From Candidatus Aminicenantes bacterium (lineage in GTDB: Bacteria > Acidobacteriota > Aminicenantia > Aminicenantales > JAFGBC01), in assembly GCA_963702005.1 (NCBI GenBank), contig OY969696.1, positions 1,792,001 through 1,856,000 of the forward strand: 64,000 nucleotides of DNA. Reading direction: 5' to 3'. Below, piece by piece: positions 11,866-57,006 of the stretch. The number at the start of each line of letters is the position of its first letter. Position 1 is the stretch's first letter. The position numbers and the translations under genes were made by a program. The notes under the pieces are model-generated. The model searched no databases. It was not told the origin of the DNA and saw nothing but the letters and a program-made list of their open reading frames with translations.

Positions 11866-11977
11866 GTGACCCGTTCGCCGACGCCAAGCCCCGCCTTTCA
11901 AGGCGGGGATGAGAGCGAGGCTCAGGGTTAATCATAAACAAGCCCCGGCCTTCAGGCCGGGGAGTCGATGATTTGAC
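11866..11977 (+). mobile_element. Non-coding TGAC-bounded hairpin element, copy A
   Basis: GTGAC|CCGTTCGCCGACGC-CAAG-CCCCGCCTTTCAAGGCGGGG...GAGGCTCAGGGTTA...CAAG-CCCCGGCCTTCAGGCCGGGG-AGTCGATGATTTGAC; homologous to four other copies. Confidence 0.75.
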
Positions 11978-12055
11978 ACGGGGATGGGTTTATGCAAAAA
12001 ATATCGAAAGCCATATATATTGATTAATGAAAATAAAAAGTGAGATAAAAAGGGC

Positions 12056-12796
12056 ATGAGAAATGAAAACCAACCCGATCCTGCTATTTTAAAGAAAAAA
12101 CTGGATATCAAGCTTCCGCTCATCGGATTTTATGATGCGCCCGATCCGGCCATATTCGAACCCCTCGTCACGCCCAAGAAAAACGACTGCGTCTTCTCAT
12201 TCTACAAGAACTGGCTTCAAGGCGAGACTCTCTCCAGCACCAGGGAGAGTTACGGCTGCGGCGGCGCCGGCAGTTGCTTATGGGGAATCCAGGCCAGGTC
12301 GAGAAAGGAGTTCATCAAGTTCCTTGCCGATGATGAAGGTCTCAAGGTCTCGGGCGAGCTTATGGAGAGATTCATCGATTCGACAACGTCCTACCGAGCC
12401 GAGAACGCCCACATTTTCATCGGGCCGCTCAAGGAGGAAGGCTGGCCATACGTCAAGACAATCACTTTTCTTGTCAACCCTGATCAGCTAAGCGCTTTGA
12501 TGATCGGCGCGCAGTATCACAGCGCCCCCGAGGACCCGCCTCCAGTATTAGCGCCCTTTGGCTCAGGCTGTCGCGAGCTCATCCCTTTCAAGGACTTCAA
12601 TGGGCCTCAGGCTTCGATCGGCGCGACTGACATCGCCATGCGTCAACACTTACCACCTGACATCCTCGCATTTACCGTCACCAAGCCGATGCTCAGCCGG
12701 CTCTGTAAACTCGACGAAAGAAGCTTCCTCTACAAGCCTTTTCTGCTACGTCTCCAGAAAGCTCGCGGCGCCACGCTCTTTCGCGATCCAACGTAA
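12056..12796 (+). CDS. DUF169-like protein
   Basis: Cys motifs (DCVF, YGCGGA, FGSGC), VNPDQLSAL, IGATDIAMR. Confidence 0.7.
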   Translation: MRNENQPDPAILKKKLDIKLPLIGFYDAPDPAIFEPLVTPKKNDCVFSFYKNWLQGETLSSTRESYGCGGAGSCLWGIQARSRKEFIKFLADDEGLKVSGELMERFIDSTTSYRAENAHIFIGPLKEEGWPYVKTITFLVNPDQLSALMIGAQYHSAPEDPPPVLAPFGSGCRELIPFKDFNGPQASIGATDIAMRQHLPPDILAFTVTKPMLSRLCKLDERSFLYKPFLLRLQKARGATLFRDPT

Positions 12797-13012
12797 GGCT
12801 CGCCTCCCGCTGTTTTTAGCTCGAGTTGACTTCCTCTGTTCTTATAATCTATTATCCATGACGATGAGACGTAGCAAAATCAGCGCCTAAATTATCACTT
12901 AGCCAGCGCAGAGGAAAAGGAATTTTCTCTAAATCGGATCAGTAAGAACCAGGCGATTCAGCGCCGGTTTCCCCTCAAGGAGGGGGGAGGGCGCGGTCCG
13001 AAAGGAGGGACC

Positions 13013-13798
13013 ATGAACGGGAAAGCTTCTTTTGGTTGGGCATTGGGGTGCGGTATCTTGATGCTCTCGGCCCTGGCGGCCGGCGCGACCACCACGGCCA
13101 AGCCGGACCTGACCATCTCCTCCATATCGGCAGAGCAGCTGGAGACCACGCTCGTGCCGCTCCGCTTCAAGGTCACCGTGGAGGTCAAAAACCAGGGTCA
13201 AGCCTACGCCCAGCATTTCAACTGCCGCCTGTTCTACCGTCTCTCCAGCTCCGCTCCCTGGCAGGAACTCGACACCTGGCACCGGGACGGGCTGAACCTC
13301 AGCCAGACCTTCAGCCACGTGACCCAGAGGGACGTCACGGCGGGCGGCACCTATTACTTTAAGGCCGAGGCGGACTGCGACCAGGAGCTGAGCGAGAGCT
13401 CCGAAGGCAATAACATCCGATACTATTCCAAGAGCTTCACGGCCGGCACGCCGGACCTGACCGTGGAGAACCTGACCGCCTCGACGGTCAACGTTTATTC
13501 CAGCGGAAGCTGGGCCGTCAAATCCGAATGGGATGTGAAGAATATCGGCGACGGCAAGGCCTCCAGTTCCTTCGTCGTCCTCCTTCGGGTGTATAAAGAT
13601 AGCGACTCGGCGGGGGCCGACCTACAAAGCTACACTCGCTACAGCCTGGACAAAGGTGCAAGTATCCATTTTTCAAGGACGACGACGTTCTCCAACATCA
13701 ACGCGGTGCATTTTAAGGTGATCGCCGATTCAACCGGCAAGATCTATGAAAAATCGGAGAGCAATAACAGCGCGACCTCTAACACGCTTACAAAGTAG
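13013..13798 (+). CDS. Secreted protein with two CARDB domains
   Basis: Signal peptide; two PDLT...V.N.G...ES.E.NN repeats. Confidence 0.8.
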   Translation: MNGKASFGWALGCGILMLSALAAGATTTAKPDLTISSISAEQLETTLVPLRFKVTVEVKNQGQAYAQHFNCRLFYRLSSSAPWQELDTWHRDGLNLSQTFSHVTQRDVTAGGTYYFKAEADCDQELSESSEGNNIRYYSKSFTAGTPDLTVENLTASTVNVYSSGSWAVKSEWDVKNIGDGKASSSFVVLLRVYKDSDSAGADLQSYTRYSLDKGASIHFSRTTTFSNINAVHFKVIADSTGKIYEKSESNNSATSNTLTK

Positions 13799-14025
13799 AA
13801 GGGCGGGCGTCTGACCTCCCGTCGGGGGTCGTTCCGATTATTGCGAGACAGGACACTAGAAAGATTCTAGATGGTGCCCCGGCCGATCCTCCTAAAATGC
13901 GATGGCTTTTTGGCGAAAACCCTGATATACATACCCTCGGTAATTATCCGCCGGCAGGGAAGAGAAAGCTCTGCATAATCTTTGAGTTGCCGGAGAAAGA
14001 CGACTGAATCGGAGAGGAGGAAGAA

Positions 14026-14463
14026 ATGGGATTAAAGCGGAAGCAGATGCTAATGCGGCAAAAGGTATATTTCGAACAAGAACTGCAAAATCGGCTGTCT
14101 TTCCTATCCGGGAAGGGGATCGTGTCTCCCAAGGCCGATAAAGATACTCTCGTTAGAAAACTGCAGGCCAATATCCGGGCCATGAATAGAAGGCTGAGGC
14201 TGATTGCCGACAACGAAAAGAGAACGGAAGAAATAGCGAAGATTAAGGCGGAAAGGGCGGCAGCCCCCCTGAAAAAACAGGAAGGCGATAAAGCCGAGAA
14301 GCCTAAGAAAGCCCCCGAAGAGGGCAAGGAAAAAAGGATAAAGGCGGAAAAGAAAGCAGTCCCTCCGAAAGTGCAGGAAGGCGGCAAAGACCAGAAGACG
14401 ACGGAATCCCCCGAAGCAGGCAAGGCGACAACGAAAAAGAAAAGAGAAGAAACGAAGTCATAG
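14026..14463 (+). CDS. Lys/Glu-rich hypothetical protein
   Basis: GAGGAGG RBS; 145-aa charged ORF. Confidence 0.65.
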   Translation: MGLKRKQMLMRQKVYFEQELQNRLSFLSGKGIVSPKADKDTLVRKLQANIRAMNRRLRLIADNEKRTEEIAKIKAERAAAPLKKQEGDKAEKPKKAPEEGKEKRIKAEKKAVPPKVQEGGKDQKTTESPEAGKATTKKKREETKS

Positions 14464-14967
14464 CTCTCCCTTTTTATCCCCCCGCTGTGTAGATTAAACT
14501 TTGGGCTTCCTTGAGCAGCTTGCTTTGCGGTTCTACGGTGTTATGCTTGATGTGGGTTATAAATTTATATATTAAGCGCCGCCATGCCTAATATTGCTGA
14601 TGCTTGACAATATCAAAAACACTCATAAATAATATAAATATTGAAAGGGTGGTTAAGATAGTTAAGTCTAGGTTTTTCTTGACGCTTTTTTGGACTTTTT
14701 CAATTGGCCTGTTCGTCACGGTCGCTTTCAACATTTCATTGGGCTCTCAGATTAAAAGAACCTCACTGGCAGGCGTTGTTCGTTTCCCGAATGAGGAGTA
14801 TAGCGCGTGGCTAAAAGTACAGATGAATTCTTCTGCTACGAATGCCGACAAAGTCGCTTGTACGATTAATACTTTTTTCAACATAAAATACAAGAGTTGG
14901 GTGAGGTTGGAATTGCTGGATTTTGGATTTCTTTCGCGAACGCACTAAAAAGGGTTTTCATTTTCGC

Positions 14968-15006
14968 TTGACATTCAATTAAGATTCCTTACAATATAGG
15001 TAAGGA
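14968..15006 (+). promoter_or_regulatory. TA operon promoter with palindromic operator
   Basis: TTGACA-16 nt-TACAAT overlapped by the inverted repeat TCCTTAC-N7-GTAAGGA. Confidence 0.65.
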
Positions 15007-15024
15007 GTCGAATTGTTACATAAC

Positions 15025-15252
15025 ATGGATACCGCAAAGATCACATCTAAGGGCCAGATTACGATTCCCAAGAAAATCAGGGACAGGCTCGGCGTTGCCG
15101 AAGGGGAGAGGGTTTATTTTGTGGAAAAAGGCGGCCAGATGATCATAAAAAAAGCGGTGCCGAAGTCTCCCTTCGATCAATGGGTCGGGTATCTCAAGGC
15201 CAAAAAGGGACAGAAATCCGATGCGATCGTCGATGCGCTGAGGGGGAAATGA
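15025..15252 (+). CDS. AbrB/MazE/SpoVT-family antitoxin
   Basis: AKITSKGQITIPKKIRDRLG; ATGA overlap with the toxin gene. Confidence 0.9.
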   Translation: MDTAKITSKGQITIPKKIRDRLGVAEGERVYFVEKGGQMIIKKAVPKSPFDQWVGYLKAKKGQKSDAIVDALRGK

Positions 15253-15716
15253 TCGCGGCCGTCGATACCAATGTCCTGCTCGATATTCTCATCCCGGACG
15301 AGGAGCATGGGCCCGAATCGAAAGCCGTGCTAAACCGCTACAACGAGCAAGGCAGGCTCGTAATCTGCGAATCGGTTTTCGCCGAGTTGTCTTCTCAGTT
15401 TCCCAGTGAAGACGAGCTGCTTAGATTTCTCTCTCAGACGGGGATCAAGTTTATCCGGTCCGAGGAGAGGGCTTTGACTCGGGCCGGGAAGGCCTGGAAA
15501 GAATATTCAGCGCGGCGTCCGGATTCGCTGCTTTGCTCCTCATGCGGCAATCCGATTGTTGCTTCCTGCACTCGGTGCCGAACCCGTTTTAAACCGAGAC
15601 AACATATCATAAGCGATTTTCTTATCGGCGCTCATGCGCTCGTCCATGCGGAGATTCTCCTGACCCGAGATCGAGGATTCTATCGTACCTATTTCAAGGA
15701 CCTTAAAATCGGCTGA
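15249..15716 (+). CDS. PIN-domain (VapC-like) toxin with CxxC..CxxC insert
   Basis: VDTNVLLD, E, DFLIGAHA, LLTRD; CSSC-N6-CTRC. Confidence 0.9.
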   Translation: MIAAVDTNVLLDILIPDEEHGPESKAVLNRYNEQGRLVICESVFAELSSQFPSEDELLRFLSQTGIKFIRSEERALTRAGKAWKEYSARRPDSLLCSSCGNPIVASCTRCRTRFKPRQHIISDFLIGAHALVHAEILLTRDRGFYRTYFKDLKIG

Positions 15717-15829
15717 AGGTCGAAATGATCGCGCCGATGCCGATCCCGTTCCTTGATTCGTAATCCCGGCCGTGGTATAAAGTCTCCAGCGGAAGCTAAG
15801 GTTATCTCTCGACCTAAGGAGGATCGGCC

Positions 15830-16849
15830 ATGTTTAAAAACGGCATGGCCGACATGAGGACTGCCATTACCCTCAAGCCGCTCCGGATAGGCCCGGTTGA
15901 GGTCGAATTCCCGGTCATGCTGGCCAGCCTGGCCGGCTACAGCGATCTGCCCTACCGTTTGATTTGCCGTTCGACGGGGGCGCCTTTCTGTACGACCGAG
16001 GCCATGCTGGACAGGCAGGCCATTATCGAGGCCAGGCTCCGCCGAGGGATCATCAAGCGGGATCCGGCCGACCGCCCCTTAGCGGGGCAGATCATGGGGA
16101 GCGATCCCAAGGTCATGGCCGAGGCCGCCGTTGCGCTTCGGGACATGGATTTCGACGTCATCGACCTCAACTTCGCCTGCCCGGTCAAGAAGGTCCTGAG
16201 CCGGAAGCGGGGAGGGTATCTGATGGGGGAGCCGTATCTCGCCGTCGAAATCGTCGAGGCCGTCCTGGCCGCCGTTCCGGACCGTCCGGTCACGGTCAAG
16301 TTAAGGCGGTCGTTCAAGGAGACGGATAAGGACAATCAGGCCTTTTGGACGATCGCCCGGGCCGCCTTCGAAGCCGGAGCGGCCGGCATCTGCGTCCATG
16401 CCCGGAGCGTCGATCAGAAATACCAGGGGCGGGCGGATTGGGCTTTCTTGTCCGAGGTCAAGCGCGAGTTCTCGGACAGGACGGTCATCGGGTCTGGGGA
16501 TATCCTGGTCGCGGAGGACGCGCTGCGGATGCTCGAGGAAACGGGCGTCGATGGGGTTACGGCCGCGCGGGGCGCGATCGGAAATCCCTGGATCTTCCGC
16601 CAGGTCCGCGATCTGGCCGCCGGCCGAGCCCCTTTTCATCCCTCGCTCGTCGAACAGCGGGAGCTCATCGAACGCCACTTCCGGCTGGCTTCGGAAACGT
16701 TCGGTCCGGATCGGGCCCTCAGGATCATGCGCTACTTCGGGATCCGCTATTCGCGGATGCACACCCATCCGGCTAAAGTCCGGAACGCCTTCGTCGTCGT
16801 CAAATCCGCGCGGGATTGGCAATCCGTCGTTGATACGTTCTATAGTTGA
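15830..16849 (+). CDS. dusB: tRNA-dihydrouridine synthase (DusB-like)
   Basis: LAGYSD.PYR, IDLNFACP, VHARS, GSGDI, ARGAIGNPWIF. Confidence 0.85.
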   Translation: MFKNGMADMRTAITLKPLRIGPVEVEFPVMLASLAGYSDLPYRLICRSTGAPFCTTEAMLDRQAIIEARLRRGIIKRDPADRPLAGQIMGSDPKVMAEAAVALRDMDFDVIDLNFACPVKKVLSRKRGGYLMGEPYLAVEIVEAVLAAVPDRPVTVKLRRSFKETDKDNQAFWTIARAAFEAGAAGICVHARSVDQKYQGRADWAFLSEVKREFSDRTVIGSGDILVAEDALRMLEETGVDGVTAARGAIGNPWIFRQVRDLAAGRAPFHPSLVEQRELIERHFRLASETFGPDRALRIMRYFGIRYSRMHTHPAKVRNAFVVVKSARDWQSVVDTFYS

Positions 16850-17005
16850 GCGGGCACCTTAATATCGAGGACGGCTCGGCACCAGGCCGTGAAGAGAGTC
16901 GTATGAGAGCCCGAGCGTATAAAGATGTTTATGGGGGAACAGGCGAAGTTGATGGGGTGGAGAAGGCCGTCGAAGGGTCGAGCGGGCGTCGAAATCAAAC
17001 CGGGT

Positions 17006-17161
17006 AAGGGCTCGGGATAGTCGATGAAGAAGGCCGTATGAGAGGCGGAGCGGGCAGGGTCCGCAGAGCGAAGCGACCGCGGGAGCGGAGCCTCGAATCG
17101 AGTGAAGCTTTCCTCGCTGGGGAAAGCGAACGCGCCTTCGAATCGACTATCCCGAGCCCTT
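17006..17161. repeat. 156-bp element with perfect 20-bp terminal inverted repeats
   Basis: AAGGGCTCGGGATAGTCGAT (17006-17025) / ATCGACTATCCCGAGCCCTT (17142-17161), plus internal hairpins. Confidence 0.75.
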
Positions 17162-17167
17162 GCTCCT

Positions 17168-18490
17168 TTAAGCGCCGGAGACCACGACGTCCTTGAATAC
17201 TAAGCTGGGGAACTTCTGTCCGGAGTAGGGATAGGGGTCGTTGGCGACCTCGACCAGCCGCTGCCAGATCTTGAGGTGGTTGTCGGCGATGTTCATCTCG
17301 GACACGGCCTGGACCGGGATGCCGTTCTCGAAGAGCCGGCCGACAATCCCGATCGAGGTGTCGCCCGTCGTCGAGTTCGAGTTGCCGCCGATGAACCCCG
17401 TGATCAGGATCCCGCGGCCGAGGTCCTTCATGATCTCGGCGACCGAGCGCTTGCCGGGCGGGATGAGCAGGTTCGAGGGGCCGCCCGTGGTCGGCTCCCA
17501 GCCCAGCTTCCGGCTGTAGTACCAGTCGAGGTAGAACTCTTTGAGGACGCCCGCTTCGAGCATGACCCGCTTTTTGGCGGCGAAGCCGTCGCCGTCGAAC
17601 AAACGGCTCGATAGCCCTCTCTTGATCAAGGGATCGTCGACGAGAGTCAGAAGTCCGCTCGCCACTTTCTGGCCCTTCTTGTCGGCCAGGAACGACTGCT
17701 TTTGCTGGATGGCGCGGCCGAACATGGCCTGGAGGAATCCCCCCCCGAACCGGCCGACGGACCGGTTTTCGATGATGACCGGGAGCGTCTCGGTCTTGAG
17801 CTTCTTCCCCCCGAACAGGGCCAGCGTCCGGAGGGCCGCCTCAGCCCCGATCTCCTCGGGCTTGGGGAGATCCCGGCGATGAAGGGCCACGGCCGCGGCG
17901 TATTCGGCCGGCCTACGGTCCCCCTCGTCCCGGCCCGTCATCTCGGCCGTGCCCACGAAATAAGTGGCTTCCGAATAACCGTCGAAGCCGTTCGAAGTCA
18001 TGAGGACGGACTCGCTGTAGCCGTCGGTCGATCCGGCGGTGACCGATATGACCTTTTCCCCGCCCTTGGCCAGGCAGGCGTCCTCGATCGCTTTGACGAA
18101 GGCGTGCCGCGATTCCGGCGTCCAATTCTTGTAGCTCGGATCGACGAACTCCAGGTCGAGATCCTGCCGTCCCTGGTAGTATTTCGGATCGGGAAGGGTT
18201 CGGAAGGGGTCCTCGGCCAGGAGCTTGGTCTGGGCGACGGCCCGGCCGATGAAGTCCTTAAGGGCGTCCTTTCTCAAGTCCGATGTGCTCATGCTCGAAT
18301 AGCGGCCGTTGACGAAGATCTCGAGGGAGAGCGATTTCGTCGAGGCCTCCTTGATGTTCTCGGGCTTGCGCTCCCGGTAGCTGATCTCAACCGTCCGTTC
18401 GCCATCGATCCCGATCCGGCAGGCGTCCGCCCCGGCCGCCTTGGCCGTCTGGATTCCCCAGCCCGCGAGGTCGTACAACTCCTGTTTCAT
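17168..18490 (-). CDS. pmbA: PmbA/TldE family protein
   Basis: FDGDG motif, GGNSNSTTGD.S, adjacent to tldD, no HExxxH. Confidence 0.85.
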   Translation of the reverse strand: MKQELYDLAGWGIQTAKAAGADACRIGIDGERTVEISYRERKPENIKEASTKSLSLEIFVNGRYSSMSTSDLRKDALKDFIGRAVAQTKLLAEDPFRTLPDPKYYQGRQDLDLEFVDPSYKNWTPESRHAFVKAIEDACLAKGGEKVISVTAGSTDGYSESVLMTSNGFDGYSEATYFVGTAEMTGRDEGDRRPAEYAAAVALHRRDLPKPEEIGAEAALRTLALFGGKKLKTETLPVIIENRSVGRFGGGFLQAMFGRAIQQKQSFLADKKGQKVASGLLTLVDDPLIKRGLSSRLFDGDGFAAKKRVMLEAGVLKEFYLDWYYSRKLGWEPTTGGPSNLLIPPGKRSVAEIMKDLGRGILITGFIGGNSNSTTGDTSIGIVGRLFENGIPVQAVSEMNIADNHLKIWQRLVEVANDPYPYSGQKFPSLVFKDVVVSGA

Positions 18491-18506
18491 CGTCCTTCTC
18501 CTTTCC

Positions 18507-24960: not shown

Positions 24961-24968
24961 TCTAGGGC

Positions 24969-30351: not shown

Positions 30352-31263
30352 ATGTCCAAACGATTCCTAATCGTTTTAATGATCGGCGCGGCTTTCCTCG
30401 CTTCCTGCGCCGTAGAAACCCGCGTCTCCGACCTTATAGAAATGCTGCCCGGTCCGGCCGACTCGGACGCCTGGGTCCGAAAAGGGGAGCCCCAGGTCTT
30501 CGCCGGCCGGGAGCTGTTCACCTACGTTGACGGCGGCGCCGATATCTACCTCGAATACGGATTCCGGAAGGTCCTTGTCCAGGACTACGAGAGCCGGGCC
30601 GGCAAGACCATCTCGGCCGAAATTTTCGAGATGGCGGATCCGGGCGCCGCTTTCGGGATGTACGCGTTCAAGAAAGGCAGCAAGGGCCGCGAGCTGGGGA
30701 GCGAAGGGCGCGGTCAGCTCGAGGATTATTATCTCAACTTTTGGAAAGGGCGCTATCTGGTCACCTTGACCGGCTTCGATTCCGACGGGGAGACGCTCGT
30801 CGGGCTCGAGACGCTGGCGCGCGCGGCCGAAGCCCGGATCGAGGGCGCCGGGCGTAGGCCTCGTTTCCTGGATACGCTTCCGGTCCGGGACATGATCAAG
30901 CCGAGCTTGAGCTACTTTCGCGGACCGCTCGGCCTGAACGCGGTCTATACGCGGATTTCGAGCGAGGTTCTGGGATTCAAGGAAGGGGCGGCGGCCGACT
31001 ATGACACCGGGATAAGCTTCATCGTCCTCCGCTACCCAAACGGACGGACCTCGCGGGCGGCGTTCGAGCGGCTGCGAGCGGCCTTGTCCGATCCGGCCAG
31101 GTTCTTTGAATTTCAGGATCTGGCGGACGATCTGGCGGCCGCCTCCGACGGAAAGGGGGCTTCTCTCTACACGATGCCGCGCGGCGATCGCCTCTGGATC
31201 GTGAGAGGCGGTTCCCCCAAAATAATCCGGTCGTTCCTGGCCGGCCTCCGGAACACTCGTTGA
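30352..31263 (+). CDS. Putative lipoprotein (DUF6599-like)
   Basis: LASC lipobox; LFTYVDGGADIYLEYGF; EIFEM..P..AFGMY. Confidence 0.7.
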   Translation: MSKRFLIVLMIGAAFLASCAVETRVSDLIEMLPGPADSDAWVRKGEPQVFAGRELFTYVDGGADIYLEYGFRKVLVQDYESRAGKTISAEIFEMADPGAAFGMYAFKKGSKGRELGSEGRGQLEDYYLNFWKGRYLVTLTGFDSDGETLVGLETLARAAEARIEGAGRRPRFLDTLPVRDMIKPSLSYFRGPLGLNAVYTRISSEVLGFKEGAAADYDTGISFIVLRYPNGRTSRAAFERLRAALSDPARFFEFQDLADDLAAASDGKGASLYTMPRGDRLWIVRGGSPKIIRSFLAGLRNTR

Positions 31264-31402
31264 CCCGTTCGCCGACGCTACCCCGCCCTAGAAGGCGGGG
31301 CTAAAAATCGGAGCCCCGCCTTTCAAGGCGGGGATGAGAGCGAGGCTCAGGGTTAATCATGAACAAGCCCCGGCCTTCAGGCCGGGGAGTCGATGATTTG
31401 AC
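31260..31402 (+). mobile_element. TGAC-bounded hairpin element, copy B
   Basis: TTGAC at both ends; as copy A plus an extra hairpin CCCCGCCCTAGAAGGCGGGG. The terminal TTGACA is 17 nt from TATCCT. Confidence 0.8.
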
Positions 31403-31449
31403 AGGTTTCCCGCCCTCGCATATCCTGGTTTCAGGAAGGAGACCCCCTG

Positions 31450-32508
31450 ATGATGAAGCGCAATTGGTCCCGACGTGATTTTTTAGCGGCTGGCGGCGGC
31501 TTCGTCGGCCTGGTCGGTTCCCTCCAAGCCTCACGGGTCCAGGGCCGGCGCATCGAACCGGAAGCGCCGCGCGCCGGCGGACTTCCATCATCCTCGGGAC
31601 GGGCCGCGTCCGGTGAGACGGCCACGATCGTCTTGGTCAAAGCCGACAGCCGCGGCGAGGGCGTCCGGAAATCGCTGGCCGTCCTCGGCATCAACCCGGT
31701 CCAGGGAAAGCGCACCCTCGTCAAGCCGAATTTCAACACATCCGACCCGACTCCGGGATCGACTCACAATGATACCCTGCGCGAGCTCCTGGCGGCGCTC
31801 AAAGCCATGGGCGCCGCGTCCCTCGCCGTCGGCGACCGGAGCGGGCCCGAGGAGTCCGAGCAAGTCCTGGCCAAGAAAGGAATCCGCGAGCTGGCCGCCG
31901 AGTTCGGCGCCGCGGTCCTCAATTTCGACGAGCTCGGATCCGACGGCTATGTCAAGTTCGCGCCGCACCGTTCCCATTGGCCCGACGGCTTCCTGGTCGC
32001 CAAGCCCGTCGTCGAGGCCGAGGCCGTCGTCTCGACCTGCTGCCTCAAGACCCACGGCTATGGCGGCATTTTTACGATGTCCCTCAAGAACTCGGTCGGC
32101 GTCGTTCCCCGCAAGGGCCATCCCTTCATGCGGCAGCTCCACAATTCGCCCCACCAGCGGCGGATGATCGCCGAAATCAATGGTGCTTATCGCCCCGCCC
32201 TGATCGTCGTGGACGGAATGGAAGTCTTCACGGACGGCGGCCCGATGACCGGAACCCTCAAGGCGGCGAACGTCTTCCTGGCCGGAACGGACCGGGTCGC
32301 GATCGACGCCGTCGGGGTCGCAATTCTCAAGGAGCTGGGCAGCAACAAAGCGATCATGGGGACGAAGATCTTCGCCCAGGAGCAGATCGCCCGCGCCGTC
32401 GAGCTCGGCCTGGGCGCCGGATCGGCCGACCGGATCGTCATCAAGACCGAGGACAAGGCGAGCGAAGATTACGCGGCAAAAATCCGGACCATCCTGGCCG
32501 AGGGCTGA
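31450..32508 (+). CDS. DUF362 family protein, Tat signal
   Basis: SRRDFL; VKPNFN; LKTH..FTMSLKN; DRVAIDAVG. Confidence 0.85.
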   Translation: MMKRNWSRRDFLAAGGGFVGLVGSLQASRVQGRRIEPEAPRAGGLPSSSGRAASGETATIVLVKADSRGEGVRKSLAVLGINPVQGKRTLVKPNFNTSDPTPGSTHNDTLRELLAALKAMGAASLAVGDRSGPEESEQVLAKKGIRELAAEFGAAVLNFDELGSDGYVKFAPHRSHWPDGFLVAKPVVEAEAVVSTCCLKTHGYGGIFTMSLKNSVGVVPRKGHPFMRQLHNSPHQRRMIAEINGAYRPALIVVDGMEVFTDGGPMTGTLKAANVFLAGTDRVAIDAVGVAILKELGSNKAIMGTKIFAQEQIARAVELGLGAGSADRIVIKTEDKASEDYAAKIRTILAEG

Positions 32509-36610: not shown

Positions 36611-38719
36611 ATGAAAAAAATCTTCTATCCGATCCTGGCTGGGTTAAGCCTCTGTCTCATAGGCGCGTCCCCGGCCGTCGGTTCTCGTTTTAGCCGGACG
36701 CTAGACAAGAAGGATCAGACTCCTCTTCAACATGAAGTCACCGTAACGCTCAAGCTGGTCCAGGTTCAGGTCGTGGATAAACGCGGGCAACCCGTAACCG
36801 ACCTGGAAAAATCGGATTTCGCGCTCAAGGACAACGGGAAACCGAGAGTTATCACGGATTTCGAAAAGCACATCTCGCCCGAGGCGGCCATGCCGCCTGA
36901 ACCGCAAAGCCCGGCTTCCTCCGGAGTTTCTTCAGGATTGAATAGAAAGTTCATGTTCTTCTTTGATTTCGCCTTCAACACTCCGTCCGGAGTTAAAAAA
37001 GCCAAAGAAGCGGCTCTGGATTTTATAGACACCCGGATCAGTCCCGATGATGAGATCGGGATCGTTTCATATTCCGCCCGGATGGGCTTGAAGCTCCACG
37101 AATTCTTAACGCGAGACCACGCCAAGGTGCGCCAACTCGTCGCTGGCCTGGGCGGAGCACAGGCCATGGGAAGGGCGATCGACCTGGGAGACCGCTATTT
37201 GGCCGACATGAAATCGCTAGAGGAAGCCCTGTCGGTCGGAGGACGAGGTGAGTTTGTAAATTCTAGTGAAATTACAAGTAAAATTAATCAAATCAACTAT
37301 GAAGGTTCCGTGACTGATTTCGCAACTCAAGTCAAGGATCTAGCCTCATCCCTCCGCTATGTTCCGGGTCAGAAGAATATTATTTTCTTCTCGTCCGGAA
37401 TTGCCAATTTTGTCCTATACGGAAAGCGCCTTGAAGGAACCTCGGGCTATTATGTATCCTTAAGCAATAACTGGGGAAACTCAGCTTTACGGGAAGCCTT
37501 TTCAGATATGAGTAAAGCGCTGGCCTCCTCCAACTGCATCATTTACACGGTCAATGTCCTAGGTCAACCATCCGGCCGCTTCGATGATAGGATGTTATTT
37601 CAAGGGTCCGGTCCCTACGATGATAAAAACCTGTCTGGCGATTTGTCGCTTAAGCAATTGGCGAGCGAGACGGGCGGCCGCTATTTCGACAACGTCAAAA
37701 ACTATGAGACGATCAACGAGGAAATCCAAAGATCGACCGGTTCCTATTATGTCTTAGGCTATTACATCGACGACAAAATAGACGGCAAGTATCATAAGAT
37801 CGGGGTCGAGGTCAAACGAAAGGGCTGCCGGGTTTATGGACAAAAAGGATATTTCGATCCAAAGCCGTTTTCCGAATACACAACGAACGAAAAGCTCCTT
37901 CAGCTGATCGACCTGGCCCTGAGCGATCGTCCTTATCTCCAGGATGCCGTCAATTTTCCGCTGATCGTCCTGCCCTATGCCCTTGGAGCCAAAGCCGGAC
38001 TCGCCCTCCTGGCCAAGGTCCCGGCGGGGAAAATCTTTCAGGCGGCGGGGCAGAGAGTGGAAGCCCTGACGCTCGTCTTCGATCAAAAACGGGATGTTGT
38101 AGCATTCAAGAGGGAAGAGGTCGCCGGGTGGCCCGGGTCGGAGGAGGACGCGTTCGTTTCGTCCCTGATCTCTCTTGATCCCGGCGAATACCAATGCCGG
38201 GTGGTTCTGAGAAATATGGAAACCGGAATGGGAGCCCGAGGCTCCTGCCGTGTCTCCGTTCCCGAGGGTCAGAGTTCGAGATTCATGCTGCTCGCGCCGC
38301 TCATCCTCAGGCCGGGGAAAGGAACCGTATTTTTGAACGGCGCGACAGCGACGGCTAAGAATCCGGCCCGAGTTCTTTTCACCGATATCTATCCTTTCGA
38401 CACGGAGCGATATTGCCCCATTACGAAGCCGCTCGAAAAAACGAATACGGAGCTCTCGGTTGTTGTCCGTTGCCAGGGATCCGGCCTCCGGAATCCGGAC
38501 TTGGTCTTTTCCGCCCAGCTCGTCGCCGCTTCCTCGGGGGAGATCGTCCCGGTTTCGACCTCGGTCGTCAAACAATCGGAAAACGGCCAGGCGTTCGTGT
38601 CCGAACTGCGGCTCATAACGGGAGAGCTCAAGCCGGGCGAATACACCCTGACCTTGTTCGCGGGCGAGAAGAATTCGGGGCAGAGCTCGACGGCGACAAG
38701 CAACTTCAAAGTCGACTGA
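36611..38719 (+). CDS. VWFA-related (Acidobacteria-type) domain protein
   Basis: V.V.VVDKRG.PV.DL...DF, LASETGGR, YYVLGY, GKYHKI.V.V. Confidence 0.85.
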   Translation: MKKIFYPILAGLSLCLIGASPAVGSRFSRTLDKKDQTPLQHEVTVTLKLVQVQVVDKRGQPVTDLEKSDFALKDNGKPRVITDFEKHISPEAAMPPEPQSPASSGVSSGLNRKFMFFFDFAFNTPSGVKKAKEAALDFIDTRISPDDEIGIVSYSARMGLKLHEFLTRDHAKVRQLVAGLGGAQAMGRAIDLGDRYLADMKSLEEALSVGGRGEFVNSSEITSKINQINYEGSVTDFATQVKDLASSLRYVPGQKNIIFFSSGIANFVLYGKRLEGTSGYYVSLSNNWGNSALREAFSDMSKALASSNCIIYTVNVLGQPSGRFDDRMLFQGSGPYDDKNLSGDLSLKQLASETGGRYFDNVKNYETINEEIQRSTGSYYVLGYYIDDKIDGKYHKIGVEVKRKGCRVYGQKGYFDPKPFSEYTTNEKLLQLIDLALSDRPYLQDAVNFPLIVLPYALGAKAGLALLAKVPAGKIFQAAGQRVEALTLVFDQKRDVVAFKREEVAGWPGSEEDAFVSSLISLDPGEYQCRVVLRNMETGMGARGSCRVSVPEGQSSRFMLLAPLILRPGKGTVFLNGATATAKNPARVLFTDIYPFDTERYCPITKPLEKTNTELSVVVRCQGSGLRNPDLVFSAQLVAASSGEIVPVSTSVVKQSENGQAFVSELRLITGELKPGEYTLTLFAGEKNSGQSSTATSNFKVD

Positions 38720-39864: not shown

Positions 39865-40323
39865 CGCTTCGCAGCGATCGACGTTCCGGGCCGGGCGCCG
39901 CTCTTGAGGCGGCCCCGGCCTTTCTTTTTCGCGGGGCAGGGGATGGAAAAATTCTTTCCATGCCTGTAAAAAAATAGGGGACATGTTCGTCCCCCGCCGC
40001 GATTCCCGATAATCCTTGCCTGTCCGCGGCCGATTCCCTGCCCGGCGCCCTGGTATGATTCTTGCCTATCCAAGGGTGATCGGAATCCTCATGGCATCGA
40101 GTCCAATATTTTGGAATCAAGAAGCGAGGAGGTCCCATTGAAAAAAGCGTGCGTTTTGTTTATGGCACTGGCTCTGGCCATGGCCGCGCCGTTCGCCGTC
40201 GCCTCGATTCAAGACCTCTCGAAAGCTTTCGAGAACGGCGAAATCGATAAGATCCTCAAGATGCTCGACGATGACCCGCAATTGCTGAAGGCCGACATGG
40301 GCGCGGGCATGACGCCCTTGCAC

Positions 40324-40929
40324 GAAAGCTTTACAGGCTGCCCCGTGGCTTGCCACGGGGTGGAATGTATGCCTTGCCGAGGGGGTGATAAGGGGGACCG
40401 GAAAGTCCCCCTTATCCACAAAGGCCCTTGCTCGGGAGTGTGGTAAAGTATATGGGTGACGCTGAAACGGACGAGTCATTCGGTCTACGACACGTCCTAC
40501 CATCTGGTCTGGTGTCCGAAGTACCGGAAGAAGATATTCGAGCGGGTGGAAGTCCGGGAACGAGCGAAACAGATCGTGGGAGAGATTTGCGAATCGTACG
40601 ATATTGAAATCATCGAGATGGAAATTACCGAAGATCATATTCATTTGCTAGTATCATTTCCGCCATCGCGATCGATCGGGGAGGTCGTCAGGATCATAAA
40701 GAGCATGAGTGGGAGGGGGTTGTTTCGCGAGTTTGCGGGCTTGAAAAAGAAGCTGTGGGGCGGGGAAGTGTGGGAGGACGGATATTTCGCAAGGACGGTC
40801 GGAGACCGGATGACGAGGGATGTGATCGCGAAGTACATCGTCAGTCACCGAGAACTGGAGCAAGGGCCTGCGCAGCTGGCCTTGAAGCTGCGCTCCTAAT
40901 GCCCCGCGGCTTGCCGCGGGGATCTTTAC
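40324..40929 (+). mobile_element. IS200/IS605-family IS (tnpA only), 606 bp, copy 1
   Basis: Subterminal hairpins CCCCGTGGCTTGCCACGGGG and CCCCGCGGCTTGCCGCGGGG; inserted after TGCAC, ends TTAC, no target duplication. Confidence 0.95.
40456..40899 (+). CDS. tnpA: Y1 HUH transposase
   Basis: YHLVWCPKYR, DHIH, WEDGYF..TVG, IAKYI. Confidence 0.95.
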   Translation: MTLKRTSHSVYDTSYHLVWCPKYRKKIFERVEVRERAKQIVGEICESYDIEIIEMEITEDHIHLLVSFPPSRSIGEVVRIIKSMSGRGLFREFAGLKKKLWGGEVWEDGYFARTVGDRMTRDVIAKYIVSHRELEQGPAQLALKLRS

Positions 40930-42607: not shown

Positions 42608-42681
42608 TTGACCCATTCGCCGAGGCTCAGGGTTACCCCTATACAAGCCCCCGCTTGATAACCGGGTGTCGAGGGGTTGAC
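42608..42681 (+). mobile_element. TGAC-bounded hairpin element, copy C (shortest)
   Basis: TTGAC|CCATTCGCCGAGGCTCAGGGTTA...CAAGCCCC...GTCGAGGGGTTGAC; terminal TTGACA-18 nt-TATTAT. Confidence 0.7.
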
Positions 42682-42754
42682 ATCGAACCGGCACCGGTCC
42701 TATTATTTTAAGTCGAGGGGCGGTATCAATTATCAAGAGAATCGAGGTGTAACA

Positions 42755-49801: not shown

Positions 49802-49814
49802 GAGGGAAGGCGCC

Positions 49815-52800: not shown

Positions 52801-52922
52801 TGTTCTCGCAGCTCGTCACGCTCTACGTGACGCCGGTCATTTACGTCACCTTCGACAATCTCAGGAAAAGGTGGCGGAAGGGGAAGGGCGTACAGGTAGC
52901 GGCTAATCCTCGAAAGACCTGA
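49815..52922 (+). CDS. RND permease (MdtB/C-like)
   Basis: RRPVMTTLL, VDDAIVMLENI, GLVKKNGIMMVDFA, RFRPIMMTT. Confidence 0.95.
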   Translation: MNFSETFVRRPVMTTLLMSALLIFGILGYRLLPVSDLPNVDFPTILVIAGLPGASPETMAATVATPLEKQFSTIQGLDSMTSSNQLGLTMITLQFALSRNLDAAAQDVQEMMTFASRYLPQNMPMPPYYQKVNPANTPILFMLLKSEALPLSTIDEYAQTMIAQRISMVPGVAQVAVYGSQTYAVRVQLNPDALASRGIGIDQVSRAVQTGNVNLPTGTLYGPNRAFTVQSNGQLNNAAEYRDLVVTYRNGSPVRLKDLGRVIDSVQNDKVAAWAYKGGSHERAVMLAIQRQPGTNTVAVAGAVKKLLPLFRSQLPASVDFQVLFDRSESIQASVNDVKTALIIALILVVFVIFFFLRSVRATIIPSLALPFSIIGTFAVMQILGYSLDNLSLMALTLSIGFLVDDAIVMLENIVRHQEMGEQAFAATLKGSKEIGFTIVSMTLSLAAVFIPIMFMGGILGRLFHEFAITIAAAVLFSGFVSLTLTPAMASRVLRAPGQEKHGALYVAAEKAIQAALNFYRVTLAWVLRRRRATLAFSAVILILTVVLFMKIPKGFIPSEDSGLLMGVTEAAQGISFQAMTEHQAAVAKIVQDDPNVESFASSIGGMGASNAGRMFIRLKPRGQRPLKADAVVESLRPKLFGITGINSFLQNPPPITVGGRFTKSLYQFTLQSPEVDTLYSSAAQFESRMRALPLLQDVTSDMQLQNPEVTVEIDRDKALALGVTPYQIEDALYYSYGSRQVSTIYAATNQYYVIMELEPQYQNDPSQLSKLYIQSSTGRLVPLDSVARLVPTVGPLTVNHSGQIPSVTVSFNLKPGVSLGPAVAEIAGLAKENLPTSVSTSFQGSAQAFRSSMSGLGFLLLMTIVVIYLILGILYESFIHPLTILSALPFAGFGALVTLFLFRTELSIYAFVGVIMLVGLVKKNGIMMVDFALAAERGEGKKAEDAIFEACLIRFRPIMMTTMAALFGTLPIAIGFGAGAESRRPLGLAVVGGLLFSQLVTLYVTPVIYVTFDNLRKRWRKGKGVQVAANPRKT

Positions 52923-53323
52923 TAGCCAAGAAGGAATAATGAATCAACGCTGTAGGCGATAGGTTATTAAGCGAACAGCTTCCGGTCTGCGCAACGCAGA
53001 TCGCTCTCGTCATAGTAGGGATCGGCCCAGTTGCCATCGCTGGATAAGAACCAGCCCGCGGCTTCCGCCTGCTCCTGCTTTGAAGGAGATGCGGTTTTAG
53101 CGGACTTGGCTTTTTTGGCCATCGTTGACTGGCGATCGAGAAAATCGAAGTGGTCCACGAGGGCAATGGCTTCTATGGCGAATACAGTGGCAATATCATT
53201 GTCGTGGATCGCAATGAGATTATCCCCGTTTTTTTGTTCTCCCAAGAGGGCCAGGTTGGATGAGCCGCAATAAACCACTGGGTCCTGGCCGCTGAACCCG
53301 CATACGACGAACTTATGATGCAC

Positions 53324-53929
53324 GAAAGCTTTACAGGCTGCCCCGTGGCTTGCCACGGGGTGGAATGTATGCCTTGCCGAGGGGGTGATAAGGGGGACCG
53401 GAAAGTCCCCCTTATCCACAAAGGCCCTTGCTCGGGAGTGTGGTAAAGTATATGGGTGACGCTGAAACGGACGAGTCATTCGGTCTACGACACGTCCTAC
53501 CATCTGGTCTGGTGTCCGAAGTACCGGAAGAAGATTTTCGAGCGGGTGGAAGTCCGGGAACGAGCGAAACAGATCGTGGGAGAGATTTGCGAATCGTACG
53601 ATATTGAAATCATCGAGATGGAAATTACCGAAGATCATATTCATTTGCTAGTATCATTTCCGCCATCGCGATCGATCGGGGAGGTCGTCAGGATCATAAA
53701 GAGCATGAGTGGGAGGGGGTTGTTTCGCGAGTTTGCGGGCTTGAAAAAGAAGCTGTGGGGCGGGGAAGTGTGGGAGGACGGATATTTCGCAAGGACGGTC
53801 GGAGACCGGATGACGAGGGATGTGATCGCGAAGTACATCGTCAGTCACCGAGAACTGGAGCAAGGGCCTGCGCAGCTGGCCTTGAAGCTGCGCTCCTAAT
53901 GCCCCGCGGCTTGCCGCGGGGATCTTTAC
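53324..53929 (+). mobile_element. IS200/IS605-family IS, copy 2
   Basis: Matches copy 1; the only difference I saw is synonymous A40536/T53536. Inserted after TGCAC. Confidence 0.95.
53456..53899 (+). CDS. tnpA: Y1 HUH transposase
   Basis: Protein identical to copy 1. Confidence 0.95.
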   Translation: MTLKRTSHSVYDTSYHLVWCPKYRKKIFERVEVRERAKQIVGEICESYDIEIIEMEITEDHIHLLVSFPPSRSIGEVVRIIKSMSGRGLFREFAGLKKKLWGGEVWEDGYFARTVGDRMTRDVIAKYIVSHRELEQGPAQLALKLRS

Positions 53930-55484
53930 CTGGTGCCCAAGACCAAGCCCCGGCACTTGGTTGAATGGGGGCGGCAGTTTCGTTTTGGTCGGCTTGCCGG
54001 TGACCAGCACGCCGGTCTTCCTCCGCCGCGTATAAAGAAAGATACCGTCCGGCGTGTCGGAGATTCCGTAGCTGAATATGTTTTGATTGGAATGAAGTTT
54101 ATTCAGGGCGGGAATAATCGGTCCGGTGCTTTTCTTGTCGAGCCCCATTACCGCAAACAGCACACTGCCCTGGCTGTCGTTTTCCTCCTTCGCGATGCGC
54201 GCCGCCGCATTGCCCAAGGTTTCCTTGGCGAACTTCTCATCGTGGGGCGAAAATGTGATCTCGATCTGGGGGAGTTCGGCCGAAGAGAAAGAAAAAATAT
54301 TTCCGGCCGCCGGAGTCTTGATGAACTTCGCCGCCGATACGTTGTCGTTCCAGGCATTAGCGAAGACCTGCGCGTAGGCGGCCGCCACGTCCTTGTCGTT
54401 GAAGATCAGCACGTGGTTGGAGTTCACATAGAGACCGGTGACGGAGAAGTTGGTAGAGCCCGTCAGCACTTTCAGTGGGCCGCTTGCGTCCGAGACGATC
54501 AGGACCTTATCGTGAGAATAACGGCCGAATTTCCCGCGCATGATCGCTTTCGGCGTCTTGGCCGCTTGGCTGAAGAGGTTTTCAAATTCGTCTTCAGGCT
54601 TGGGCTTCTTCGCGTCATGGTGCAGACCGGCATTGTCGAGAATGACACGGATGCGGTGGTCTTTAGCCAACGCCAGAAACGCCTTCATGATGTCCGGTTC
54701 GTTGAGATCATAAGCGAACACGTCCAGCCGAAGATTCTTATCCTTAAGGACTTCATCGGCGATCCCGAGAATCTTGTCCCGAGCGGTGAAACCCAGCCAG
54801 GCATACTCCTCCGCAAAGGTGTAGCTCTTCCCCGCGTCGTTCTTTCCGGAAACCTTCGACGTATCGAATAGCAATTCCTTGGATTTGGGGCGGAAGACGG
54901 CCGTTTTGCTGAAGTGACGCACAAAGGCCTGCGATTGTGTAAAGCCCCGCGTAAAGCCCGCCTCGATCTTCCCCTTCGAGAACGGCTCCACGTTCAGGAT
55001 CACCGATACCGACAGCGCGGGATCGAGGGTCTTGAGCGAATTGTTCCCGTCGAAGTATCTCGGCGTAACCGTGTAGGTGTAAGGGCCGAAAACCGGCTTT
55101 GTCCCCTGGTGCGCCGATCCCGGCACATGCACCCATCGAAATTTATGGATCGGCGCGTTAATGCTGGAATAGGCCGGTTCCGTGGCATCCTGCGCGTGCT
55201 GGGCGGGGTTCTTGAAGCTCAGGTTGTTGAACAGGTAGTAGGCCTGCTTTCCATCAGGACGACATTGGATGGTAAAACCCGCAAGGTTTTTAGCCTTTTC
55301 CTTCTGCAGGTTGAAAGCCAGGAGTGTCCTGGCGTCCCCTTGATACGCTTTCAGGGAGAAGCCGTCTTTTTGTGCCGTGATATTCATCGCGGCCTCCTTG
55401 TGAATAATGGAGGGGACTGAAATTTCGACTGCTTCAACCCCCTCCCCATTACAATAAAATTATATTGCCGTCCGCCCGGCGATG

Positions 55485-56173
55485 TCAATGACCTCTGCCG
55501 ATCCAACCCTGGTAAATCATCTCCTGATCCGGGCTCGGGTTCGGAATCCTCTTGATGCGGTATCCGGGATCTATCTTTTTCGCCAGGACGACCGAGACCT
55601 CTTTTTCCTCGCCGCCCCTGGAAAAGCGGACGGTGACCGTATCCCCGGGCTTTTTGGAATCGATGATCTTCTTCATGGCCGCGGCATCGACCGTGACGCC
55701 GTCCAGAGCTAAGATCACGTCCCGGGGGGCGATGCCAGCGCGCCCCGCCGCGGAATGACCACCCGCGCTCCAGACGAAAAGCTTGCCGTCCCGCTCCCGG
55801 ACCGTCGCTCCCAGGTCGGCCTCGTCAAGTTCCTTGGGCAACTCGACCTCCAACCCGGCATAGCCGAGATATTTGAGATAGCGGTTTTCTTCCACTTCAG
55901 CGGATTCCCCGATCCGTCGATAGCCCTAAAATCCTGGACGTTCCCGGCATAATCGATGATTTCGTAATAGCCCGGCATCCAGACCGGCATCTTGAAATCC
56001 CGCGTCTCGCCCTTCAATCCTTCGCAGCGAAGGACGACATGGAACAGGTGCGAGGCCGGTTCGTCCATGGAGACCGTGAAGGCCATGGTGCTGTTCGGCG
56101 GTGCCGCGAAGGCCGAGGCGGCCGCGACGAGCCAAATCATAAAGAACGCGAATGCCCTGGGCCGAGTCTTCAT
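55485..56173 (-). pseudogene. M61-type aminopeptidase remnant: N-terminus joined out of frame to the PDZ C-terminus
   Basis: Signal peptide and MPVWMPGYY N-domain, then near 55880 a switch to the frame YLKYLGYAG..AGRAGI..RDVILALDG; no HEXXH. Confidence 0.75.
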
Positions 56174-56197
56174 TCCATGATCTCCATTGCGCTAACC

Positions 56198-56294
56198 TTA
56201 ACCCGTTCGCCGACGCTACCCCGCCTTTCAATACACATGAGCCGTTTCCGGTTCATGAGTGCCGGCATTCATGCCGTGGAGTCGAGGGTTTGAC
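56198..56294 (+). mobile_element. TGAC-bounded hairpin element, copy D
   Basis: TTAAC|CCGTTCGCCGACGCTACCCCGCC...GTCGAGGGTTTGAC; shares an internal unit with copy E. Confidence 0.7.
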
Positions 56295-56545
56295 TCCGTA
56301 TAGATTTTTCCGACATAGGCAGCCGCCAGCAAGCACAAGTTGAAGACGGGCACGCTTTCACAAAAAGTTTCGATCTGCTTACGCCTTTTGGCGCCGAGTA
56401 CCCCCGCATACAGCTCGAATACGGTTATGGCTGTTACAGCCAGGCGCCCTTCCTGCAGCAGATATGTCAGGGCTTGAGCAAAGGGCGGAGTATCAGTGAA
56501 GAAATCGAGTACGACATCTGTATCCGTGATCACTAAATGCGCCAA
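56295..56545 (-). pseudogene. 3'-truncated PIN/VapC toxin
   Basis: ITDTDVVLD, TAITVFEL..G; similarity stops at copy D, and the D.LIA/T.N motifs are missing. Confidence 0.75.
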
Positions 56546-56673
56546 TTCTTCCGGATCTCCCCAAGCCCCTTTTTCGTCTCAGCAGCCTCTTCGGCATTCC
56601 AGCTTCCTCTCAACTTCATCAAGACGCTCAGGGAGAGGTCTCTTGGCCGTCTCTCCGCTCTCTCCAGCCGCCC
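56533..56673 (-). pseudogene. 5'-truncated putative antitoxin
   Basis: Frame RLERAERRPRDLSLSVLMKLRGSWNAEEAAETKKGLGEIRKNWRI* overlaps the PIN start and begins at copy E. Confidence 0.5.
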
Positions 56674-57006
56674 TTGACCCGTTCGCCGACGCTACCCCGC
56701 CCTTAAAGGCGGGGCTTAAAATCGGAGCCCCGCCTTTCAAGGCGGGGACGAGAAGCGACACTTTTGTACTCAGCCCCTTTAGAGGAGATGGGGCTGAGTG
56801 GGCTCAAGGTTAACCCCGAACAAGCCCCGGCCTTGCAGTACTCATACTAAGCCGGAAACGGCTTAGTATGTGTGCCGGCATTCATGCACTCATGAACCGT
56901 TTCCGGTTCATGAGTACTGGCGCTCCAATGAGCATTAGTCCGTGGAGCTTCGGCCGGGGAGCAGCCTTGCAGCACTCATGGCTTCCATGAGTGTCGAGGG
57001 GTTGAC
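56674..57006 (+). mobile_element. TGAC-bounded hairpin element, copy E (longest, multiply nested)
   Basis: Copy B scaffold with at least four extra G(T/C)ACTCA-initiated hairpins; terminal TTGACA-17 nt-TATATT. Confidence 0.8.

Follow-up and report, generated by a model that had tools for sequence, protein, structure and literature searches.

The stretch of DNA examined here (the window) comprises 64,000 nucleotides of a Candidatus Aminicenantes bacterium, positions 1792001-1856000 of contig C1 in genome G000, which is a single contig of 4.31 Mb with 60.4% G+C. It contains five copies of a short non-coding element, hereafter the TTGAC element, all of them on the + strand. Each copy follows TTGAC or a TTGAC-like pentanucleotide (5-mer), starts with CC(G/A)TTCGCCGA and ends with GTCGA-N4-TTGAC; the right end is followed by T in copy 4 and by A in the other four. 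An initial annotation, made from the letters of the window, had reported these coordinates, strands, ends and following bases, and all of them were verified. The copies and the promoter-like sites that adjoin three of them are as follows.

11866..11870, + strand: left target 5-mer of copy 1, GTGAC, off-consensus (GTGAC stands at the left of 3 of the 113 copies in the genome)
11871..11977, + strand: copy 1, element of 107 nt, young TGAT subfamily
31260..31264, + strand: left target of copy 2, TTGAC; empty alleles retain exactly one TTGAC
31265..31402, + strand: copy 2, element of 138 nt with three hairpins and the central box; missing in relatives
31398..31426, + strand: promoter-like site, TTGACA-17 nt-TATCCT, whose -35 core is the last five bases of copy 2
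42608..42681, + strand: copy 3, target TTGAC (42608-42612) and minimal element of 69 nt, with CCATTCGCCGA
42677..42706, + strand: promoter-like site, TTGACA-18 nt-TATTAT, adjoining copy 3; promoter scan score 11 of 12
56198..56294, + strand: copy 4, left 5-mer TTAAC and element of 92 nt with odd internal modules
56674..57006, + strand: copy 5, target TTGAC (56674-56678) and element of 328 nt with many nested hairpin modules
57002..57030, + strand: promoter-like site, TTGACA-17 nt-TATATT, upstream of the gene at 57211-58371

Between its left-end motif and its right end, GTCGATGATTTGAC, copy 1 carries two GC hairpins and a central GGCTCAGGGTTAA box; in copy 3 the box and a decayed hairpin are all that separates the two ends. 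Both the -10-like hexamers and the spacers of the three promoter-like sites had been read correctly in the initial annotation, and the first two sites were also returned by a promoter scan, in which the site at copy 2 scored 10 of 12; a co-oriented gene begins near 31451, downstream of it. Past the right end of copy 1, no -10 was found at 16-18 nt. A scan of the window with Rfam gave no family at gathering score.

A modular, gene-less repeat family

The left end recurs throughout the genome. Its exact motif has 132 matches on both strands, of which 86 lie directly after TTGAC, and a 14-base pattern spanning the left junction, GACCCGTTCGCCGA, matches 98 times in G000 versus 0 times for the reversed pattern; this repetition is far above chance. 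Pairing each left end with the next right end gave 123 pairs, and removal of one 20-nt pair and of nine that by eye looked like chance matches in GC-rich, coding-like DNA left ~113 copies of 63-356 nt; by the same pairing criteria, the window holds no copies beyond the five. Copies of this size are too short for a gene, in agreement with the non-autonomous nature proposed earlier. Written out, the family has the form TTGAC, CCGTTCGCCGA, a variable interior and GTCGA-N4-TTGAC, with the element boundaries directly after the first and the last TTGAC. Copies occur singly or in head-to-tail tandems, and because five of the 113 run straight into another copy, 108 right flanks were available for analysis. 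Lengths fall into classes of 63-81, 104-112 and 138-154 nt, the longest copy measuring 356 nt, and one subfamily comprises 15 near-identical copies of exactly 107 nt.

The copies are modular: one to several hairpins, and in 71/113 copies also a central GGCTCAGGGTTAA box, lie between a left and a right end; minimal copies of 63-70 nt retain one hairpin, beside the right end. Entire hairpin modules, 31-38 nt in length, distinguish the subfamilies (e.g., window 31278-31314). Small hairpins are also nested within the loops of larger ones, an arrangement that recalls the small repeats invading PATE palindromes (PATE, palindrome-associated transposable element) in Haloquadratum (PMC3119063). Folded as single-stranded DNA and compared with shuffled sequences, copies 1 and 2 are strongly structured (z = -4.6 and z = -6.0, respectively) and have GC hairpins near both ends. 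No terminal inverted repeats were found: the ends are CCGTTCGCCGA and GTCGA-N4-TTGAC, and the sole end-to-end complementarity is 4-5 nt long and subterminal (CGAC/GTCG). A different complementarity links the right end to the interior. The right-end N4 forms an exact complement of the 4 nt that follow GGGTTA of the box in 62 of the 71 box-bearing copies. Since this pairing is kept through seven pair types (e.g., TGAT/ATCA and GGGG/CCCC), the helix is under selection; it extends into the TT of the terminal TTGAC. The sequence also shows that GTCGA and GTTAA can both base-pair with TTGAC throughout, one pair in each case being G-T.

Beyond G000, the same-genus relative G001 has 118 left-end matches, and at least one match was found in 39 of 201 genomes, including 64 matches in genome G106; copy numbers are lower in other genomes of the same order. 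Public records that contain the left junction are mostly titled Candidatus Aminicenantes.

Empty alleles, target word and strand bias

Comparison of G000 and G001 revealed insertions that are present in one genome and absent from the other. Sixty of the 118 G001 sites were taken in list order, 49 elements were paired, and their flanks were searched in G000. Both flanks were colinear in G000 for 24 of the 49, and the 17 with a gap of <300 nt were inspected. Nine of these 17 insertions are empty in G000, where one 5-mer stands between the conserved flanks, as listed below.

Case 1: TTAAC (indel beside the junction)
Case 4: GTGAT
Case 16: TAGAC
Case 19: TGAAC
Case 24: GAGAC
Case 25: CTGAC (indel beside the junction)
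Case 32: ATGAC
Case 38: TTGAT
Case 47: TTAAC

Among the remaining cases, 12, 21, 26 and 42 are occupied in both genomes, case 30 has its G000 and G001 copies at different places, case 5 has no element in G000 and no clear 5-mer, and cases 7, 28 and 40 are ambiguous. Insertions were also seen in the other direction. The site of copy 2 is empty in contig C52 of G001, with a single TTGAC followed by the same flank; the site of copy 5 is empty in contig C481, with the flanks contiguous around a single TTGAC; and the G000 copy at 913482 (case 30) is empty in G001. In total, twelve empty alleles with a single 5-mer were found in the two directions. In addition, contigs from two public wetland metagenome runs of one study (X3 and X4) join 31259 to 31398 and skip exactly 138 nt, the length of copy 2, with 119-523 matching bases on each side of the skip.

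Four pairs of left and empty 5-mers are not TTGAC (ATGAC/ATGAC, GAGAC/GAGAC, GTGAC/GTGAT and CTGAC/TAGAC), and the right end is still TTGAC. The empty 5-mer thus matches or resembles the left 5-mer, whereas the right TTGAC belongs to the element, and no target duplication occurs. The earlier proposal of insertion 3' of a TTGAC-like 5-mer without duplication is borne out by these single 5-mers.

For copies 1 and 3, neither G001 nor G002 yielded orthologous flanks, and metagenome contigs stop at copy 3, so the element offers an explanation for contig breaks in Aminicenantes assemblies. Copy 4 borders on a minus-strand PIN-like gene, at the 3' part of the latter. In G001, TTCAAA stands before the right flank of this copy, and no homology is seen at the left flank. 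A simple insertion was therefore rejected for copy 4, as the locus is rearranged relative to G001. The PIN-like frame (VapC-type, assigned by eye) occupies window positions 56228-56545 (- strand), its 3' end entering copy 4, and its G001 homologue runs on into different sequence; G001 also carries ~330 nt extra between the PIN-like gene pair and the site of copy 5.

The left 5-mer is TTGAC in 84 of the 113 copies and a variant in 29, mostly NTGAC, NTCAC or TTAAC, while the right end is TTGAC in 106 and a variant in 7. One copy (G000:C1:596417-596440) sits after GTCAC within a unit of a second family of repetitive extragenic palindromes (REPs), and this insertion into a REP unit accounts for one of the three GTCAC left 5-mers. 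Conservation in the flank logo is confined to positions -5 to +1 of the insertion sites. Directly past the element, 98/108 copies have A or T; the corresponding count among copies that lack a downstream -10 is 48/57, compared with 322/948 unoccupied intergenic TTGAC sites (p = 5e-14). The preference holds even in the absence of a -10, and the target is thus the six-base word TTGAC(W), with W standing for A or T.

The orientation of the element relative to this asymmetric word is identical in all copies. With GC skew alone used to place the origin (near 0.50 Mb) and the terminus (near 2.76 Mb), the TTGAC strand is the lagging-strand template in 94/113 copies, versus 54% of called genes (p = 1.4e-10). 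Unoccupied promoter-like TTGAC sites show this orientation in 187 of 361 cases, and the youngest copies, defined as those with at least 98% identity to their closest full-length relative, in 18 of 19. IS200/IS605 insertion sequences (ISs) place their left end 3' of a specific word of four or five nucleotides and favour the lagging-strand template (PMC5027513). The combination of lagging-template bias, pentanucleotide target, absence of duplication and hairpins matches that family, and without a gene it fits the PATE definition (PMC3119063). The TTGAC element is therefore best read as a PATE-like transposon of the IS200/IS605 single-strand type that carries no gene, and the strand bias supports the IS200/IS605-type mechanism to which the initial annotation had appealed. 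The element is abundant and recently active.

Based on these findings, we propose a mechanism for its movement. A single DNA strand would be excised and then joined 3' of a TTGAC on the lagging-strand template, with a preference for A or T as the next base and without duplication of the target. A Y1 (HUH) transposase acting in trans probably moves the element, and GTCGA or the GGGTTAA box would pair with the terminal TTGAC as a guide to the cleavage site and the target, as in IS608. TTGAC(A/T) doubles as the sigma-70 -35 hexamer, such that insertion at a promoter displaces the old upstream DNA by 63-356 nt and keeps a -35 at the right distance from the old -10. New insertions may strike any TTGAC site, and copies at promoters would persist longer, as suggested by the age and polymorphism data described below; longer persistence at promoters would account for the roughly half of all copies that lie on promoter-like sites.

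Association with promoters

TANNNT hexamers after the terminal TTGACN are concentrated at promoter spacing, with 7, 27 and 21 occurrences at spacers of 16, 17 and 18 nt, versus 0-4 at any other spacer from 0 to 44 nt. A properly spaced TANNNT follows 51 of the 108 copies, and 57 have no -10 at the proper distance. The peak lies at 17-18 nt; it is also present in G001 (14/46) and in loci from other Aminicenantes records (28/61, a set found by a pattern that includes TTGAC and partly overlapping G001). At copies 2 and 5 the -35 predates the insertion: the empty G001 alleles read TTGACA-17 nt-TATCCT and TTGACA-17 nt-TATGCT, respectively. Both keep TTGACA-N17-TATNNT, in line with the earlier idea that the right-end TTGAC regenerates the -35 core. 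A -10 follows 48/79 copies with TTGAC on the left versus 3/29 with another left 5-mer, and the low latter count implies that new promoters are rarely created by insertion.

To place these counts against background, a crude gene map was drawn up from open reading frames (ORFs) with a minimum of 90 codons, selected on length and on G+C by codon position, which gave 3253 genes covering 89% of the genome. Unoccupied TTGAC sites within genes have TANNNT at 16-18 nt in 224 of 8057 cases. Between genes, the hexamer is present at 361 of 1309 unoccupied sites (28%) versus 37 of 73 occupied ones (odds ratio 2.7, p = 5e-5); with the further restriction to a co-oriented gene start within 300 nt, it is present at 296 of 765 (39%) versus 30 of 51 (odds ratio 2.3, p = 0.007). 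From these odds ratios, most of the association follows from the target word together with survival outside genes. Copies adjoin 37/398 intergenic TTGAC-N16-18-TANNNT motifs, or 51/412 when copies mapped as genic are included. That TTGAC(W) is both targeted and rebuilt explains why the element can occupy about one in ten consensus-like promoters.

The age of the copies bears on how this association arises. A -10 follows 4/19 of the youngest copies and 15/28, 20/39 and 12/22 of the older classes (4/19 vs 47/89, p = 0.02), and the youngest value is close to the 28% of unoccupied intergenic TTGAC sites. None of the nine polymorphic G001 insertions is promoter-like, compared with all four insertions common to G000 and G001 (p = 0.001). 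The promoter excess thus seems to build up with time, and copies at promoters appear to be mainly retained rather than targeted. As to the right-flank enrichment that the initial annotation had proposed to test, A or T at the next base and TANNNT above the 28-39% background were both found genome-wide, whereas the youngest copies stand at baseline. Its suggestion that -35 boxes are targeted as such is not supported, in view of the 57 copies that have no -10 and of the youngest and the polymorphic insertions.

These data also bear on an alternative that we consider unlikely, in which the element homes to active sigma-70 promoters, for example through exposed single-stranded DNA, and is kept there as an upstream insulator or terminator module. 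Such homing would fit the excess of -10 hexamers at occupied over unoccupied intergenic sites, both overall and near a co-oriented gene start, as well as the share of intergenic promoter motifs that adjoin a copy (~1 in 10), the promoter-like nature of all four common insertions and the two terminator-like hairpins on the minus strand of copy 2. It is at odds with the baseline frequency in the youngest copies, with the nine polymorphic G001 insertions, with the 57 copies that have no -10, with the many copies that follow stop-codon-like NTGAC 5-mers, and with the preference for A or T at the next base, which persists when there is no -10. A related and bolder possibility is that the element is no mere tolerated parasite and, by selecting TTGAC(A/T) and bearing that word at its own end, evolved to occupy sigma-70 -35 boxes without silencing them, and that the host keeps the hairpins against read-through out of the neighbouring gene or to displace upstream regulator sites. 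We regard this as doubtful; if true, about one in ten consensus-like promoters would be insulated or rewired by a single family of single-strand transposons, representing a new form of coexistence between mobile DNA and promoters, driven by a Y1 enzyme separated from its element.

Collectively, the results make it probable that the family consists of non-autonomous IS200/IS605-type elements (PATEs) that insert at TTGAC(W) anywhere, and whose promoter copies are mainly retained. The family shows how a transposon can occupy promoters without disrupting them, and copies 2 and 5 provide natural pairs of promoters with and without upstream hairpin DNA. For annotation, this means that the -35 of about one in ten consensus-like promoters in these genomes comes from a repeat.

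Transposase search, rival mobilities and known systems

Several observations weigh against the reading of the family as retained PATE-like elements. As to retention, the argument rests on small age classes; the polymorphic set is biased against promoters, because clean empty sites are easier to spot where the flanks are conserved and coding; the intergenic classes depend on a crude ORF/GC3 call; the scorable polymorphic G000 copies are at promoters in 3 of 3 cases; and the excess of -10 hexamers at occupied intergenic sites makes some insertion preference possible. As to structure, the central box is absent from 42 of the 113 copies, and copies 3 (z = -0.3) and 4 fold no better than shuffles. 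As to the enzyme, no transposase with matching ends was found among the resident IS200, the RAYT-like genes (RAYT, REP-associated tyrosine transposase) or the relatives. The ends and the flank of the resident IS200 are unlike those of the element, only the type of hairpin stem (CCCCG...CGGGG) being alike; rayt1 and rayt2, two of the three RAYT-like genes, each have a different repeat family of their own in inverted copies on either side, as in classical REPtrons; the third, rayt3, has no ortholog in G001 despite the 118 left ends there, and has orthologs in element-free genomes, and was rejected as a partner; and in G106, with its 64 left-end matches, no IS200-type TnpA was found, just three weaker Y1 matches.

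The search behind these statements covered 14 Y1 matches in G000, 11 of them IS200 and three RAYT-like. The resident IS200 is 606 nt long, encodes a Y1 transposase of 147 aa and is present in 11 copies. Two copies lie in the window, one at 40322-40927 and a second with tnpA at ~53480-53842; contigs from each of the four metagenome runs lack the first with exact boundaries, which indicates a recent insertion. The IS200 TnpA is not supported as the partner, given the differing ends and the G106 left ends without it. The RAYT-like genes score 61.1, 66.2 and 78.7 bits against a cut-off of 80 for the NCBIfam REP-associated tyrosine transposase. Two lie at G000:C1:2326423-2327076 and 713755-714693 (loci L081 and L082), and the REP families of rayt1 and rayt2 have roughly 50-90 genomic matches each; rayt3, at 3854827-3855579, has no flanking repeat. 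Homologs of the rayt2 type (E up to 1e-30) are present in 13/17 genomes with at least two left-end matches versus 55/184 others. A rayt2-type gene is at most a lead, as the co-occurrence is loose and among kin genomes, and the G000 gene has its own repeat on its flanks. Two Pfam models for TnpB detected no gene in G000, so a role of omega-RNA is unlikely. No autonomous copy, with the ends enclosing a Y1 gene, was found in G000 or in 80 public-record loci. At the Y1 loci of five relatives, one true left end was found nearby (contig C140 of G001), for which chance suffices.

The search for end pairs in G000 yielded just three composites, each of which holds an IS110-family gene. All four full-length IS110-family genes of G000 lie inside element copies (around 2353910, 3585181, 3157374 and 4077115), at the foot of an ACTCAT...ATGAGT hairpin beside the right end; one diverged copy is in the mirror position on the other strand. 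This placement looks like hairpin-specific targeting, and some members of the IS110 family target REP sequences. It raises the alternative that the element is a miniature derivative or passenger of an IS110-family IS, or of another site-specific recombinase, with TTGAC as the common core of donor and target. IS110-family elements insert in one orientation without duplication, as the TTGAC element does, and all four full-length copies adjoin GTCGA-N4-TTGAC or its mirror. We nonetheless find this origin quite improbable. Three near-identical IS110 copies are in elements with differing left parts and must have entered ready-made elements independently; the 5-6 conserved target bases are too few for bridge-RNA-guided IS110 recombination, which reads a longer specific target (more than 10 nt); and lagging-template bias is a known mark of Y1 single-strand transposition.

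An ordinary miniature inverted-repeat transposable element (MITE), moved by a DDE transposase and duplicating a 5-bp TTGAC target, would explain why 77 of the 108 non-tandem copies have TTGAC both at the left and at the right. It is very improbable, however, in view of the missing terminal inverted repeats, the orientation to the asymmetric target that is fixed in all copies, the 5-mers that differ between left and right in 26 of the same 108, the unequal numbers of left and right variants, and the four empty sites that follow the variant left 5-mer while the right end is TTGAC. Finally, an immobile, conserved upstream promoter module of the host, for which the recurrence of the -35-adjacent position in several Aminicenantes genomes might speak, is refuted by the empty alleles and can hardly be reconciled with presence/absence polymorphism at exact boundaries, with the half of the copies that lie away from promoters, or with near-identical subfamily copies such as the 15 of exactly 107 nt.

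A gene-less single-strand transposon of the IS200/IS605 type, which is the reading we favour, has counterparts in known systems. PATEs are gene-less derivatives of IS200/IS605 type, defined in Haloquadratum walsbyi (PMC3119063), and PATE-like elements were reported in Geobacillus stearothermophilus (PMC10055086). The TTGAC element resembles PATEs, as described there, in its lack of terminal inverted repeats, palindromes near the ends, absence of target duplication, non-coding length and modular heterogeneity, and in the small repeats and insertion sequences inside its hairpins. It differs from them in that no resident IS200/IS605 has the same ends, in its bacterial host lineage, Aminicenantes, and in that its target equals its own last five bases, TTGAC, the core of the -35. 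IS608 (target TTAC; PMC5027513) and ISDra2 (target TTGAT; PMC12415229) share with it a left end 3' of a word of 4-5 nt, a preference for the lagging-strand template, subterminal hairpins and a single-strand mechanism. Unlike IS608 and ISDra2, the element has neither tnpA nor tnpB, and no TnpB gene was found in the genome. The guide pairing proposed for the TTGAC element would be ordinary base pairing over 5-8 nt, and the family offers a clean case in which to study how a Y1 enzyme would read its cleavage site through DNA-DNA pairing. In PMC12415229, TTGAC is itself given as the predicted alternative transposon-adjacent motif (TAM), i.e., the left cleavage site, of one TnpB ortholog, for which editing was undetected.

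REPs and bacterial interspersed mosaic elements (BIMEs) are numerous intergenic hairpin repeats, thought to be moved by a Y1 enzyme in trans (PMC6006769). The TTGAC element is similar in its many intergenic hairpins and mosaic arrangement; unlike REP/RAYT systems, it flanks no RAYT-like gene, forms no inverted pairs and has no GTAG/CGTC tag at its ends. G000 has two separate classical REP families besides it. A mobile-element end that serves as the -35 for a flanking -10 is familiar from outward -35 hybrid promoters at IS ends and from the Correia elements of Neisseria. In contrast to these, a pre-existing -35 is merely replaced here. A search of the literature, with matches judged largely by title and opening of the abstract, returned no description of this element or of an Aminicenantes equivalent, and a gene-less IS200/IS605-type element whose target and terminal word are both the -35 core appears to be undescribed.

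One further strain difference was observed in the window. At positions 37194-37352, contigs of three metagenome runs carry 163 other letters in place of a 157-nt stretch, a difference unrelated to the TTGAC element.

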